Shown: positions 3,658-20,000 of the stretch, one piece after another
Numbering within the stretch: the first letter of the stretch is position 1
How the letters are laid out: every line of letters begins with the position of its first letter
IMG/VR virus record: IMGVR_UViG_3300025154_000091
DNA: 20,000 nt
Strand: one strand, 5' to 3'
DNA from: an uncultured virus (IMG/VR IMGVR_UViG_3300025154_000091)
Lineage: Duplodnaviria; Heunggongvirae; Uroviricota; Caudoviricetes
Notes under the pieces: generated by a model
Database searches by the model: none
Told to the model about the DNA's origin: nothing
What the model saw: the letters and a program-made list of their open reading frames with translations, nothing else
Position numbers and translations under genes: made by a program

Positions 3658-4143
3658 ATGATAGTAAATAGAGGACCATCATTTGGAGTCTACTACCTTG
3701 TAGACCCTACAGCACCTAATAAACTATTCGGTGCTAGGTGGGAGAACTATTGGTATATGGGAAGTGGTGTGTCCTTCTTCATCTTACTAAAGGATCTGTC
3801 AGGTGTACCAGATAATCCAGTTCATTCAGAATCCTTCGATGTGGATTTGTCTACTGCAGATGATCTAGCAACTATGACTCTGTTTCAATCCCTGTTGTTC
3901 GGGAGTGTCCTATACCTTGAAGGATTAAAACCAGTACCTAGATACTTGGTAGAGTTAGATATTGCTGAAGGGCTTACAGGCCCTGAGATAATCGACAAGA
4001 GGGCAGCTATACTTGTGCCTGAGTTCTTAGGGTTCAAGTTAGCTGACGTTCTTAGAGACTTCCCAGAACTCTGGAGCCCTACGATAGATGAAGATGGAAA
4101 CGAAGTTCCAAACATAATGAGGTGTAGTCTTGAAATGGCTTAA
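3658..4143 (+). CDS. Hypothetical phage protein
   Basis: 161-aa ORF with a GAGGT Shine-Dalgarno upstream; fits the operon packing. Confidence 0.7.
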   Translation: MIVNRGPSFGVYYLVDPTAPNKLFGARWENYWYMGSGVSFFILLKDLSGVPDNPVHSESFDVDLSTADDLATMTLFQSLLFGSVLYLEGLKPVPRYLVELDIAEGLTGPEIIDKRAAILVPEFLGFKLADVLRDFPELWSPTIDEDGNEVPNIMRCSLEMA

Positions 4144-4618
4144 TGTACTACTGGTGGTATTGATGTTGGGAGTATTCACCACAGGTTGTGACGGTGGTGG
4201 AGATGAGCCAACAATGATTGAAGAGAACGATCCTAATAGCATCTATAACAAGGAGCTTGATAGGCTTAAGAATGCTCCACCCACTGATGTTCCTACAACC
4301 CCAACAGTAACTCCTCCTAGTTCTAATAGGTCTGAGACGTTTACTAGTTACGGTGAAAGGAATGGTGGTAGGAAAGCATGGAGGATTAATAAGAAAGGCC
4401 CTCAGTTCGGTAAGAGGATTAAGGTAGTCTTTAGTAATGGCCATACAGTTATGGTGAATGACACATCTCACAACTATAGAGAGGGTGATGGGTTTGTATT
4501 CAAGCCCGGTATCGGGCCTAATGGAACAGGTGACAGTGACACAGGTACAGCTCATGGTGGAGTGTACCTACATGCACCTTATGGCAATAACAGCAACACA
4601 GTAACCTTCTACTTCTAA
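4130..4618 (+). CDS. Putative lipoprotein
   Basis: TTG start after GAGGTG. Hydrophobic leader ending FTTG-C (lipobox-like), then a Pro/Thr linker and a basic beta domain. Confidence 0.7.
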   Translation: MKWLNVLLVVLMLGVFTTGCDGGGDEPTMIEENDPNSIYNKELDRLKNAPPTDVPTTPTVTPPSSNRSETFTSYGERNGGRKAWRINKKGPQFGKRIKVVFSNGHTVMVNDTSHNYREGDGFVFKPGIGPNGTGDSDTGTAHGGVYLHAPYGNNSNTVTFYF

Positions 4619-4627
4619 GAGGAATAT

Positions 4628-5128
4628 ATGAATAAGAAAACTATCTTTATCCTTATAGCAGCTGTAGTGTTGCTGGTAGGGTGCGGAACTAAAGAGTATA
4701 ATGATGCTGTAAAGGATATGAATACGATGAACAGGAAGGCTTATGCTGAGGGTATGGCTGCCTGTAAGGGTGATCCTGCATGTCAGGTAGGTCTCTCAGC
4801 AGCTTACTTCGGTAATGCTGGACAGGTGCCTCTAGCTAAGCCAGACACGGTCCTCGACTATGCTAAGGCTGCACTCCCTTTCGCGCAGCTCTGGGTGCAG
4901 TGGGATGGTTCTGGTAACTCAGCTGGTAGTGGTGGAGTCACCTTTAGGAATGTGAAGTTTGGTAGAGATGCTGTCATCAGCGGATTCAATACTACCAAGA
5001 GCACTACCATCACTGAAGATAACAATGACAGGGAGTTCTCCCTTCAGGCACCTCCAGGTACTAGCGGAATCAGTGATGGTGGAGTTACATCATTCGAACC
5101 TATTAACCCTGCTCCTCCTGCTCTGTAA
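4628..5128 (+). CDS. Putative lipoprotein
   Basis: GAGG RBS. MNKKTIFILIAAVVLLVG-C is a canonical lipobox. Internal CKGDPAC pair. Confidence 0.75.
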   Translation: MNKKTIFILIAAVVLLVGCGTKEYNDAVKDMNTMNRKAYAEGMAACKGDPACQVGLSAAYFGNAGQVPLAKPDTVLDYAKAALPFAQLWVQWDGSGNSAGSGGVTFRNVKFGRDAVISGFNTTKSTTITEDNNDREFSLQAPPGTSGISDGGVTSFEPINPAPPAL

Positions 5129-16877: not shown

Positions 16878-17346
16878 TGCTGCCAGTACCTTCAGTCTCA
16901 TCATTGAACTCATCAGTTCCATCAACAACATCGAACTCATCAGAGTCCTGATCTCCACCACCTGCATAGGCTACAAGGTCTACGATCTGAATGGCCTGAA
17001 GGTCAGCACTCAAACCCTTCTTACCTTTATACTCCCAAGCAAACGGAGCGAACTGTACATTAACAATACTACCATTCCCGATAATACCATTGAAGGTATT
17101 CTTACCAGCATCTACTACTCGGGGTGGTGGGTTCTCACCTACTACAGCACCTGCTTTCTTCTTATCTACATTCCGTTTGAACTTGTACTCATACACATCA
17201 TCATCGTTCCGCTTCACCTTCAGCCCTGCAGCCTTTAGCTTCTTAGCTTCATCATCTGACAGCAGAAGAGTAACCCTCCAACAAGGATCAAACTTAGTAT
17301 CTGCTTGCTTGGTATAGGCCCACATTGCAATTCCAGTAGTCTTCAT
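16852..17346 (-). CDS. ssDNA-binding protein (T7 gp2.5-like)
   Basis: PRVVD...IGNGSIVNV...LQAIQIVDLVAY, acidic tail ending in Phe. Confidence 0.85.
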   Translation of the reverse strand: MKTTGIAMWAYTKQADTKFDPCWRVTLLLSDDEAKKLKAAGLKVKRNDDDVYEYKFKRNVDKKKAGAVVGENPPPRVVDAGKNTFNGIIGNGSIVNVQFAPFAWEYKGKKGLSADLQAIQIVDLVAYAGGGDQDSDEFDVVDGTDEFNDETEGTGSNDEDNEEF

Positions 17347-17873
17347 ATTGTAACTCCCATCTTTAATTGAATTTCTTTGATGATACGCTTCTTCATATAA
17401 CCAGCTTTCCTAATAGTAACCTTAGCAGCCTTGGCCACCTCAGCCTTAGGATCACTATGGATAATCAAACCATAGTATATAATTCTATCCAGTTTATCTT
17501 TAGGTGCTAGACCCTCTATGATACCATCGTAATCATCATTCTCCTCATAGTTATGTTCTGTTCTTGGTTCGTCATCAGTATCTACAAGACTATCTATAGG
17601 TACCTCGATCTCTTCTCTGCGCTGCAGCTTCTTGATGTGAGCTATCATCTCATAGCGGATACTATTAGATGCATAAGTATTAAACTGAAAGCCCCTAGCA
17701 GGATCGTACTTCAATGAAGACTTCCTCAAGGCTATCATACCTATCCCCATCAGATCTTCTCGGTGCCCTTGCCACCTCCTGTTGCGCTCTCTAGATAGGA
17801 ACTCATCTACTACGACCTCAACCATTCCGAAGAAGTCTTCACACAATTGCTTACGCTCAGTATCAGTTAAGAT
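17343..17873 (-). CDS. Sigma70-family RNA polymerase sigma-like factor
   Basis: Region 2 signature EDLMGIGMIALRKSSLKYDPARGFQFNTYASNSIR and a C-terminal HTH (KAEVAKAAKVT). Start is uncertain: ATC 17873 behind AAGGAG, or TTG 17846. Confidence 0.8.
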   Translation of the reverse strand: MLTDTERKQLCEDFFGMVEVVVDEFLSRERNRRWQGHREDLMGIGMIALRKSSLKYDPARGFQFNTYASNSIRYEMIAHIKKLQRREEIEVPIDSLVDTDDEPRTEHNYEENDDYDGIIEGLAPKDKLDRIIYYGLIIHSDPKAEVAKAAKVTIRKAGYMKKRIIKEIQLKMGVTI

Positions 17874-18016
17874 ATTGTTCTCCTTATTTTTAGCATTGTA
17901 TACCTCTTATGATTCTTCTTAACAAAGATCTGTAGATGGTTGTCTAGACGTTGATGACAGAATTTCATATTGTGCCTGTTCTCTCCACCTATGTATAAGA
18001 TGTAACAGAATCTCAT
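17867..18016 (-). CDS. 49-aa microprotein C of tandem family (not in ORF track)
   Basis: Translation MRFCYILYIGGENRHNMKFCHQRLDNHLQIFVKKNHKRYTMLKIRRTIS. ATGA overlap with the upstream ORF. Confidence 0.65.
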   Translation of the reverse strand: MRFCYILYIGGENRHNMKFCHQRLDNHLQIFVKKNHKRYTMLKIRRTIS

Positions 18017-18162
18017 ATCACCCTCTTAATCTTTAGTATCTTATAAGTACTAGGTCTCCCTAATACATAATCTACAAGACGACCACCATCTAGACTATCT
18101 ACAAGGATGACTCTGTTATCCCTACCCTCATTACTTAGGTAGATAATAAAATACTTTCTCAT
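18013..18162 (-). CDS. 49-aa microprotein B of tandem family (not in ORF track)
   Basis: Translation MRKYFIIYLSNEGRDNRVILVDSLDGGRLVDYVLGRPSTYKILKIKRVI. Confidence 0.65.
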   Translation of the reverse strand: MRKYFIIYLSNEGRDNRVILVDSLDGGRLVDYVLGRPSTYKILKIKRVI

Positions 18163-18196
18163 ATCATTAAGACTCTATTTATTATATAGTAACTCA

Positions 18197-18358
18197 TCAC
18201 TCGATTGTCCTCCGAATCTTTAAGGTAGTATAGAACATTCTTCCAGACTTTGAGTCTAGGTAAGGGCCTGTAGTCCTATCATCTGGGAGAATATATAGAG
18301 GAACCACTGACCTACCTGTTCGTTCAACACCCTCTAACATGATTAAGAATCGTCTCAT
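18197..18358 (-). CDS. 53-aa microprotein A of tandem family
   Basis: ATG 18358 overlaps the HNH stop (TGATG) with GAGGTG RBS. Translation MRRFLIMLEG...FYTTLKIRRTIE. Confidence 0.65.
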   Translation of the reverse strand: MRRFLIMLEGVERTGRSVVPLYILPDDRTTGPYLDSKSGRMFYTTLKIRRTIE

Positions 18359-18828
18359 CAATGCACCTCTGCCCAATTTTTTCCAGAAAGTATTCCAGCT
18401 ATCGCTCCTGATGGGTATCCGAAAAAGACTAAACACTTTCTCCTATACCCTATTGATATTAAAAGTTTTATATCCCTTACCTCATCTTCTGTCAGTAAAG
18501 CTCTAGAGTTTCTAACACCCTTAGCAGATCTATTACCTAAGCTATAAGAGTGTTTTATATTCTCACTATGAGATACCCACCTAAGATTATCTACACTATT
18601 GTTCAATCGAACACCATCAATATGATCTACATCTGAGAAATGATATGGGTTTGGGAGATAAACCTCTGCCACTAATCTGTGTACAGCCTTACACACCCTA
18701 CCCCTATCGGTGTTTATATTTACAGTAAGATAACCTCTCCCATTATCGGAAGATTTTATTAACTTACCAAACTTATTAAACACCTCTCCATCTTTTGTTA
18801 CATGATACGAGTAATAGTTTGAGATCAT
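18358..18828 (-). CDS. HNH homing endonuclease (NUMOD4/HNH_3 type)
   Basis: Y.VTKDGEV, GYLTV, VHRLVAEVYLPNP, VDHIDGVRLNNSVDNLRWVSHSEN and a C-terminal HTH-like segment. Confidence 0.9.
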   Translation of the reverse strand: MISNYYSYHVTKDGEVFNKFGKLIKSSDNGRGYLTVNINTDRGRVCKAVHRLVAEVYLPNPYHFSDVDHIDGVRLNNSVDNLRWVSHSENIKHSYSLGNRSAKGVRNSRALLTEDEVRDIKLLISIGYRRKCLVFFGYPSGAIAGILSGKNWAEVH

Positions 18829-18850
18829 AGCACACCACACTTGAGTTTAG

Positions 18851-18879
18851 ATTATAATACATTAGAGTATCCTTACGAA
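18851..18879 (-). promoter_or_regulatory. Putative sigma70-type promoter for the HNH gene
   Basis: On the - strand: TTCGTA, 17-nt spacer, TATAAT, within the polA-HNH gap. Confidence 0.45.
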
Positions 18880-18902
18880 CTATAATCTATATAGTGTGAT
18901 GA

Positions 18903-19988
18903 TTAGTGAACGTCGGCCCAGGTCATCCCTATTTTCACATCAGCATCTATAGGTACTATAAGATTGAGCTGACCTTGGACCATGTTAGCACCAAGCTTTA
19001 TAATCTTTGAAGCTTCTTCAGCATGCTCAGGTAAGCACCTATAAGCGGCCTCATCGTGGTATTCCAGCATCTGCCTACAATAAATACCAGTACCCTCAAG
19101 CATTTTATTAGTATTTATTAACCACATCTTAAAGATTAGAGCTGCTGTAGATTGTATAGCTGTATTAAGAAGCTTATACTCTTGTCTAACTTGAATCTTC
19201 CTACCATCAAGCCCGACTATATACTTATTCTTCTTGAAGAACTTGGACAAGTAGTCGACAACCATCTTTACTCCTAGATTGCCAGACCAAAATGAGTCTA
19301 TATATTCTTCAGCTTTCTCTTCTGAACAACCAAGAATCCTTGAGAGCTTAGGAGCTCTGGCTCCGTAGAATATTGCATACTGAAAACTCTTCGCAACATC
19401 CCTAGTATTCTGTATAAGATCGGCATTATATTGGTGAAGATCAGGGACCGAATTGATAACATTCCAGTAGGCACCACCATCAAAGAGAGATGCCCAGTGT
19501 GCTGTAACTCTTGCCTCTATCTGAGCAAGGTCAGCACCTATCATCACATAAGGGTCCCACACCCTGAAGAGTGATCGCATCTCCCTACCATAGATGACAG
19601 ACTTCTTAGCCTTTGGAACATTACATACAGCACCACTGTGTGTGGTCCTTCCTGTTGGGGTAGCACAAGGCATACCATCTGCAGTCACTCTACCATCCGA
19701 GCGTACCTTAGATAGGATGCCCTTATTCTCAGGATCCTTTAGGTTCTCGATAGTTCTCCTTCTGTGTACAAGGACGTTTCTTCGAGCAACTAACTGGCCT
19801 AACTCACCCTTAATAGATCCGAAGGAATCTTCAGTGAGCTTTGGGGATGTAGGTTCCTTAGTCTTCTTATCTATATTCCACTGAGTAGGAACCCAACCAA
19901 CAGAAAGTAAGAATGCTTTTACTTGTTCGTGACTGTTGAGATTGATTCGTTCGTACTTGATCTTACAGTATGGTCCACGAATATTCAT
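18903..19988 (-). CDS. polA: Family A DNA polymerase, polymerase domain only (T7-like)
   Basis: TPTGRTTH, NVP, motif A GADLAQIEAR, motif B RDVAKSFQYAIFYG (Tyr at the E. coli F762 position), LNTAIQS, motif C HDE, and C-terminal WADVH. Confidence 0.93.
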   Translation of the reverse strand: MNIRGPYCKIKYERINLNSHEQVKAFLLSVGWVPTQWNIDKKTKEPTSPKLTEDSFGSIKGELGQLVARRNVLVHRRRTIENLKDPENKGILSKVRSDGRVTADGMPCATPTGRTTHSGAVCNVPKAKKSVIYGREMRSLFRVWDPYVMIGADLAQIEARVTAHWASLFDGGAYWNVINSVPDLHQYNADLIQNTRDVAKSFQYAIFYGARAPKLSRILGCSEEKAEEYIDSFWSGNLGVKMVVDYLSKFFKKNKYIVGLDGRKIQVRQEYKLLNTAIQSTAALIFKMWLINTNKMLEGTGIYCRQMLEYHDEAAYRCLPEHAEEASKIIKLGANMVQGQLNLIVPIDADVKIGMTWADVH

Positions 19989-20000
19989 GCGCTATAATCT

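Follow-up and report, generated by a model that had tools for sequence, protein, structure and literature searches.

A free-standing HNH endonuclease gene lying directly behind the DNA polymerase gene (polA) of a phage carries, as its own last residues and stop (W-A-E-V-H-stop), what is very likely the captured old end of polA, judging from the two protein families. We think it probable that the nuclease gained these five polA codons and the stop by landing in the polA end, and that it spreads by attacking HNH-free polA, with a nick or a cut, at polymerase motif C (YH/DE, the slash marking the junction that related elements interrupt). The anatomy of the locus, its empty allele, the loss of the nuclease family's own tail, the intron-borne family members at YH/DE, a hairpin and a shared sequence motif are observations; this anatomy is real and well supported, and the mechanism is what we infer from it.

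The window—the whole 20,000-nt stretch of DNA that was analyzed—belongs to a 64.5-kb phage contig (G000 C1), and the features of the locus are as follows (window coordinates, read from polA downstream).

18903..19988, minus strand: PolA polymerase-domain gene, HNH-plus allele, 361 aa (PF00476, E 9e-39)
19048..19070, minus strand: motif C region (Q-M-L-E-Y-H/D-E-A), predicted target in the empty allele and predicted resistant form here
18903..18929, minus strand: functional polA end, G-M-T-W-A-D-V-H-stop (by sequence; identical peptide in L002)
18833..18901, minus strand: RNA hairpin pairing the HNH ribosome-binding region (~18833-18841); z -4.27 in the window, -4.01 in L002
18887..18895, minus strand: ACTATATAG motif in the 5' arm of the hairpin, candidate phage promoter element
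18358..18828, minus strand: free-standing I-HmuI-like HNH endonuclease, 156 aa from ATG (PF13392, 1U3E)
18358..18375, minus strand: W-A-E-V-H-TGA, very likely the captured old polA end, in-frame C-terminus of the HNH in place of the family tail
18197..18358, minus strand: 53-aa microprotein, TGATG-coupled to the HNH stop (in the empty allele, identically coupled straight after polA)

The window polA is the polymerase domain alone of a split gene whose exonuclease domain is a separate upstream gene (a 245-aa exonuclease-like gene at L001:2704-3441 and the 361-aa polymerase gene at 4001-5086, with microproteins between); many PolA relatives are likewise ~360 aa long and some are ~600 aa. Its 3' codons read GGG ATG ACC TGG GCC GAC GTT CAC TAA. 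The HNH frame opens at ATG 18828 or GTG 18840 and closes at 18358 with GGA AAA AAT TGG GCA GAG GTG CAT TGA. These matching endings (GMTWADVH in polA, GKNWAEVH in the HNH) had been picked out in a sequence-only reading of the same DNA; they are there, and a second HNH-plus allele (L002) retains the arrangement, with polA ending GMTWADVH and the HNH ending GKNWGDVH. Chance does not account for the pair, as the two-tail pattern is matched once here and in none of 200 shuffles of the window. That the element is intron-free, also claimed in that reading, agrees with a search of 17000-20000 in which no group I intron was detected; a placement of the HNH inside such an intron is ruled out by this and by a polA that runs uninterrupted to its stop, in colinearity with the empty allele. 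The 53-aa microprotein is the first of three that end in an L-K-I-[RK]-R motif and that have no Pfam or PHROG family match. Arrays of hypervariable ORFs of 42-76 aa, with a C-terminal L-[KR]-[IV]-[KR]-[RK]-x-[LIV], overlapping stops and starts and a purine-rich site within the motif, occur at window 17867-18358, at L001:1503-3997 and elsewhere on G000 C1 (18 ORFs), and possibly form a cassette system.

An HNH-free allele of this locus is present in the same assembly and the same samples as the window allele. It occupies the first 1.5 kb of the source contig (polA at G000 C1:428-1513) and is identical, in the part compared, to L003; as in I-HmuI-type elements, the nuclease is therefore optional, with an empty allele in close relatives (L003, G000 C1:1-1513). 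The empty polA closes with GTA GGA ATG ACT TGG GCG GAG GTA CAT TGA TG (peptide GMTWAEVH), and its stop overlaps the start of the next microprotein (TGATG) just as the HNH stop does in the window. This lends support to the proposal that the old polA end sits in frame on the HNH, with the coupling preserved. An HNH-free polA had been expected to end GKNWAEVH and to be coupled directly to the microprotein; the coupling is as foreseen and the ending is GMTWAEVH, which is also not the GMTWADVH that had been named as evidence against capture.

Assembly structure places the alleles side by side. In run X1, a single unbranched contig of 2096 nt spans the empty allele and one of 2130 nt the window allele, the two being alternative paths from a shared 32-nt node (the polA start) to a shared contig (the sigma-factor gene); depths of 8.5 on the window path and 27.9 on the empty path sum to the shared 36.5, a figure used here as topology only, X1 and the other run used stemming from a single study that is possibly the window's own source. 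The source contig's two ends are themselves two alleles of one locus (G000 C1:1-2174 against window 17780-20000), i.e., the assembly joins coexisting strains. The alleles with DNA context number three (window, L002 and L003), all from one study. Window and empty polA share 85% aa and 77% nt identity, with identity ranging from 65 to 90% along the whole gene, and synonymous sites are saturated among the alleles (dS 1.3-2.4). Of the three, the empty polA stands furthest apart (dS 1.6-2.4 vs 1.3), which fits an outgroup.

Over the 20 nt that begin with the Trp codon, the HNH tail has 2 mismatches to the empty polA end, a match that is weak by itself (P=0.13), and 6 to the end of the polA beside it, a count that stays within the ~23% background seen among polA alleles (binomial P=0.30); over the 18 nt ahead of that codon, the HNH has 11-13 mismatches to polA ends. 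These DNA statistics alone are weak; the case for capture rests on the protein families and on the shared TGATG. We aligned 28 of the 36 HNH matches P0004-P0039 (of the other eight, four are near-duplicates, two partial and two distant). All 28 of these outside homologs keep the Trp, carry Ser at W+4 and run 8-16 residues beyond the Trp, and none of the 28 has A/G at W+1 or E/D at W+2; the family's own tail, x-x-I-S-x-x-Y-x-F, is replaced in the window HNH. It is this uniform extension past the Trp that makes a captured polA end very likely. On the other side of the comparison, 101 of 120 PolA relatives end G-x-x-W-x-x-x-H, with AEV the commonest filling (17/101), and two of the 120 end exactly GKNWAEVH.

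The residues ahead of the Trp say less. Among the outside HNH homologs, K and N each occur in 16/28 at the positions before the invariant W, with G at -3 in 3/28; K-N is thus native to both families and not diagnostic of polA origin, and A-E-V-H-stop is polA-type only. The shared K-N-W would have made the junction easy, and the sequence allows it anywhere between G and W. The suggestion that polA supplied the entire GKNWAEVH accordingly narrows to W-A-E-V-H-stop, the clearly polA-derived part. Native K-N-W is also what might recommend a convergent origin, in which the nuclease's own helix-turn-helix ending drifted towards that of PolA, but after the Trp nothing in the 28 outside homologs resembles AEVH-stop, a W-x-x-x-H ending occurs among the 120 HNH matches listed in P0001 and P0002 only (both of this lineage), and the HNH stop and TGATG match the empty allele. 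Convergence is already largely refuted and we regard it as most improbable; nor do homologs at other loci, aligned or listed, end GKNWAEVH, the finding that had been singled out as telling for it. Wider scans returned the same lineage or nothing: the HNH-tail pattern has two matches in viral contigs, both already-known alleles, and a metagenome scan with a polA alignment gave no match. A same-strand polA neighbor was looked for at 93 HNH loci; six have one and none of the six has the tail, and in the two of the top five phage matches that were examined (SPG24 and Gaspode) the HNH is not at polA. No phage report of in-frame tail capture was found in the literature covered, most subscription journals lying outside that coverage.

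The nuclease itself matches PF13392 (E 4e-11) and the I-HmuI structure 1U3E both by sequence (E 1e-7) and by predicted fold, with an HNH core of D-H and Asn residues and a C-terminal helical domain as in I-HmuI; family searches returned HNH families only. Core residues H69, N77, N81 and N90 are invariant in 31 aligned rows, and comparison of the window and L002 proteins (dN 0.17, dS 1.48; dN/dS ~0.12) indicates purifying selection. The family tree is poorly resolved: the three tail-bearing proteins form one group with weak support (94/69), and the five members described next are scattered through it.

Where the nuclease cuts is suggested by its relatives. Five family members with polA context (loci L016-L019 and L084, i.e., the best phage matches phiA009, KLEP7 and GEC_vB_MG and the viral contigs L016 and L084) interrupt polA at YH/DE, and their proteins are 40-47% identical to the window HNH. 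All five have TAC CAT at the close of exon 1, G as the last base of the insert and GAT GAR at the start of exon 2; searched against Rfam, the L019 insert alone scored (39 bits, below the cut-off). In the window the corresponding H/D junction lies at 19056/19055, ~50 codons upstream of the last polA codons. The 23 nt of the motif C region are identical in the window and L002 and different in L003, the two HNH-plus alleles reading CTG GAA TAC CAC GAT GAG GC and the empty one ATC TGC TAT CAT GAT GAA TA. Codons 308-317 hold 11 differences shared by the HNH-plus alleles (p=0.002 for this span, p=0.22 for any such span, the span having been chosen after viewing the alignment). The Glu two residues before the motif C His occurs in 4 of 104 PolA relatives, the four closest, and in the 11-nt core of the intron junction the empty and HNH-plus alleles have one mismatch each. 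PolA site 881 is, we assume, the motif C His of HDE. Introns of PhiI/W31 are placed at site 881 in the portion of PMC3428280 available to us. Separately, L126:1348-2498 holds an ORF-free group I intron at YH/DE (79 bits, Rfam) together with a free-standing, tail-less HNH behind polA, which by its sequence is a collaborative-homing layout.

Two features, the intron-borne family members at motif C and the changes around it that HNH-plus alleles share, lead us to favor motif C of HNH-free polA as the probable cut site over the last polA codons. The latter would place the target across the polA end, such that it is split upon insertion, with the respelled WADVH end conferring resistance on the carrier. 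This is how a classical homing endonuclease behaves, its insertion splitting its own target, and the insertion point does lie in the last codons, where both HNH-plus alleles read GAC GTT CAC against GAG GTA CAT in the empty one. Yet the tail differences do not rise above background, and YH/DE, not the gene end, is the place marked by those family members that have polA context. Furthermore, an AEVH end occurs together with the HNH-plus form of motif C in P0121 and P0247 (proteins without DNA context, 95% like the window polymerase), which makes a role for the Asp of WADVH less credible; and, according to the section of PMC2988022 consulted, the cut of a free-standing nuclease typically falls hundreds of bases away from the nuclease's gene. 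We therefore consider a last-codon target unlikely. The same evidence leaves the recoded, cleavage-resistant end proposed in the sequence-only reading unsupported: since synonymous sites are saturated among the alleles, 'recoding' is not needed to account for the tail's spelling.

A neutral reading concerns the landing site rather than the cut. If W-x-x-x-H-stop were a general microhomology landing site, the HNH could have arrived as passive cargo that does not home via polA, and the empty allele could be a precise loss by recombination between the two tails, which would give exactly the empty ending. Recurrent duplications of the polA end keep this reading alive. In the phage-like loci L035 and L164 the PolA tail is duplicated around a non-nuclease ORF of 170-190 aa (in L035 a weak DruA match, ended in frame by the duplicated tail), and in bacterial polA (L034, L056, L171, L177 and L186) a second copy of the last codons lies ~550 nt downstream, as a longer tail duplication and again with non-nuclease cargo in between. 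Against it, the present cargo comes from a family with ties to introns at polA motif C, is under purifying selection with control signals typical of homing nucleases, and is missing from the allele whose divergence fits an outgroup; we judge passive insertion improbable. The two-tail scans behind these comparisons yielded five viral loci at a gap of 510-540 (two real, the window contig and L002, and three chance), one viral locus at 480-510 (L164), 51 metagenome loci (both tails real in five, L034, L035, L039, which is this locus, L041 and L056, and not in 46) and 27 loci in genomes (three polA tail duplications, L171, L177 and L186, and 24 not); as they cover a single spelling of the tail and spacings within a 60-nt range, they give no measure of frequency.

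On these comparisons the PolA end (W-x-x-x-H-stop) appears as a recurring landing site, and nucleases sit at both ends of the gene. In L041 an unrelated nuclease (phrog_3322; reverse strand 1197-1763) behind a PolA ending GESWAETH shows the same kind of tail: it ends GANWSEAH, as no other sequence does among 120 homologs. The HNH-free allele has a mirror-image element of its own, an Endo VII nuclease (PF02945) after polA codon 10 (L003:3341-4030; G000 C1:1514-2174, minus strand), whose stranded polA start equals that of the window allele at 30/30 nt and whose working start differs at 7/30. Further intron-like inserts occur in the lineage, from L004:4618 onward after the polA motif B codons and at L003:522-747 in the primase-helicase. 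A broader scheme can be offered tentatively, as one we would not yet back: phages may possess gene-end-replacing homing elements, resembling the yeast WHO elements discussed below, that wear the orphaned end; the HNH at the 3' end and the Endo VII at the 5' end would fight over one polA on mutually exclusive 2.1-kb alleles, each evicting the other, and the W-x-x-x-H-stop site would have been reused independently by the L041 nuclease.

Between polA and the HNH lies a spacer of 74 nt whose hairpin was equaled in stability by 0/200 shuffles and shows one A-U to G-C double change between alleles. Folding of shorter transcripts frees the ribosome-binding site only partly (unpaired probability from 0.03 to 0.17-0.33). 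The ACTATATAG motif recurs in the source contig at 10 copies against ~1.9 expected (G000 C1: 2131, 5447, 7165, 14312, 63415 and five more), 5/10 of them 40-67 nt before endonuclease ORFs, and one copy precedes the intron ORF in L004; it is a candidate promoter for the phage sigma factor encoded at window 17343-17846. Thus the promoter earlier ascribed to the element takes the form of a control region (hairpin plus ACTATATAG), with promoter function predicted. A sigma-70 promoter was sought in the spacer and rejected, there being none on the minus strand and five sites in the region as a whole against 3.9 by chance. Hairpin-plus-late-promoter control is described for T4-type phage nucleases, e.g., Aeh1 mobE and I-TevI, in the passages available of PMC2988022.

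We propose the following history for capture at the polA end and spread through motif C. A fragment consisting of the 3' part of a related polA, its stop, the control region and the HNH would have recombined into polA, upstream by homology and downstream where the nuclease's native x-K-N-W met polA's G-x-[TN]-W (9/12 nt alike in present sequences). That join would have removed ~9 native HNH residues, placed the old A-E-V-H-stop in frame behind the rest and left the TGATG coupling intact. In mixed infection the HNH would then attack the empty allele around YH/DE, and repair would copy the donor from YH/DE through the HNH to shared sequence ~460 nt downstream. Carriers would owe their resistance to the motif C codons, not to the last codons, and the hairpin would block HNH translation from polA read-through RNA until transcription begins at ACTATATAG.

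The value of this locus lies in a clean pair of occupied and empty alleles with a specific target prediction (motif C vs the last codons). It offers a possible route by which an intron-type nuclease becomes free-standing with an essential gene and its translational coupling intact, a point relevant to the question of interconversion between free-standing and intronic nucleases. If the broader scheme is true, a phage version with rival elements at both gene ends would widen the category of gene-end replacement—called rare in the portion seen of the WHO preprint (bioRxiv 10.64898/2026.08.13.744650)—and explain mosaic polymerase alleles.

Among known systems, T3 gene 5.3 shares the position, a free-standing HNH directly behind polA, and the pairing with homologous intron-borne nucleases at H/DE. 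Bonocora and Shub are said to have found, in 2009, that T3 gene 5.3 and the intron-borne I-TslI cleave the same site. Orthology with gp5.3 does not extend to the window nuclease, however (28% over 68 aa, E 0.012), and gp5.3 was rejected as a tail-bearing precedent since it is without a polA tail. Collaborative homing in T3/T7-like phages is treated in the part consulted of PMC10448857, which with the excerpts used of PMC3984707 and PMC6083498 provides background. The fold and HNH core are those of the I-HmuI family (1U3E), but the window HNH is not in an intron and the intron of I-HmuI is at PolA site 674, not 881 (PMC3428280, same portion). With Aeh1 mobE and I-TevI, as presented in those passages of PMC2988022, it shares a hairpin over the ribosome-binding site with a promoter-like motif in the 5' arm.

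Closer in logic are elements that replace gene ends. In the WHO elements at yeast FBA1, as far as the available text of the two accounts goes (Coughlan et al. 2020, PMC7282813; bioRxiv 10.64898/2026.08.13.744650), an intron-free and intein-free nuclease likewise follows an essential gene, a foreign 3' end keeps the host gene complete with the old end remaining downstream (here in miniature, five codons), and sensitive and resistant alleles coexist, as is predicted here. In contrast to WHO as described there, the window nuclease is HNH rather than LAGLIDADG/intein-zinc finger, its leftover is translated as the nuclease's own C-terminus, its alleles diverge over the whole gene (77% nt) instead of the 3' half, no clusters are seen, and allele-specific cleavage is a prediction. 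The mobile endonuclease ORF (mORF) hybrids of fungal mitochondria (Allomyces atp6; Glomus atp6/atp9/cox2/nad3), in the sections seen of PMC3630166, have the same order of foreign C-terminus, endonuclease and native C-terminus, and C-terminal duplications in this context are reported in the part seen of PMC6279837. Those nucleases, however, are LAGLIDADG or GIY-YIG in a mitochondrial gene where ours is a phage HNH, and here a very short native end stands in for the tail of the nuclease and preserves the stop-start coupling. Compared at the level of sequence, the element appears to work like WHO elements, fungal mORFs and T3 gene 5.3, and belongs to none of them.
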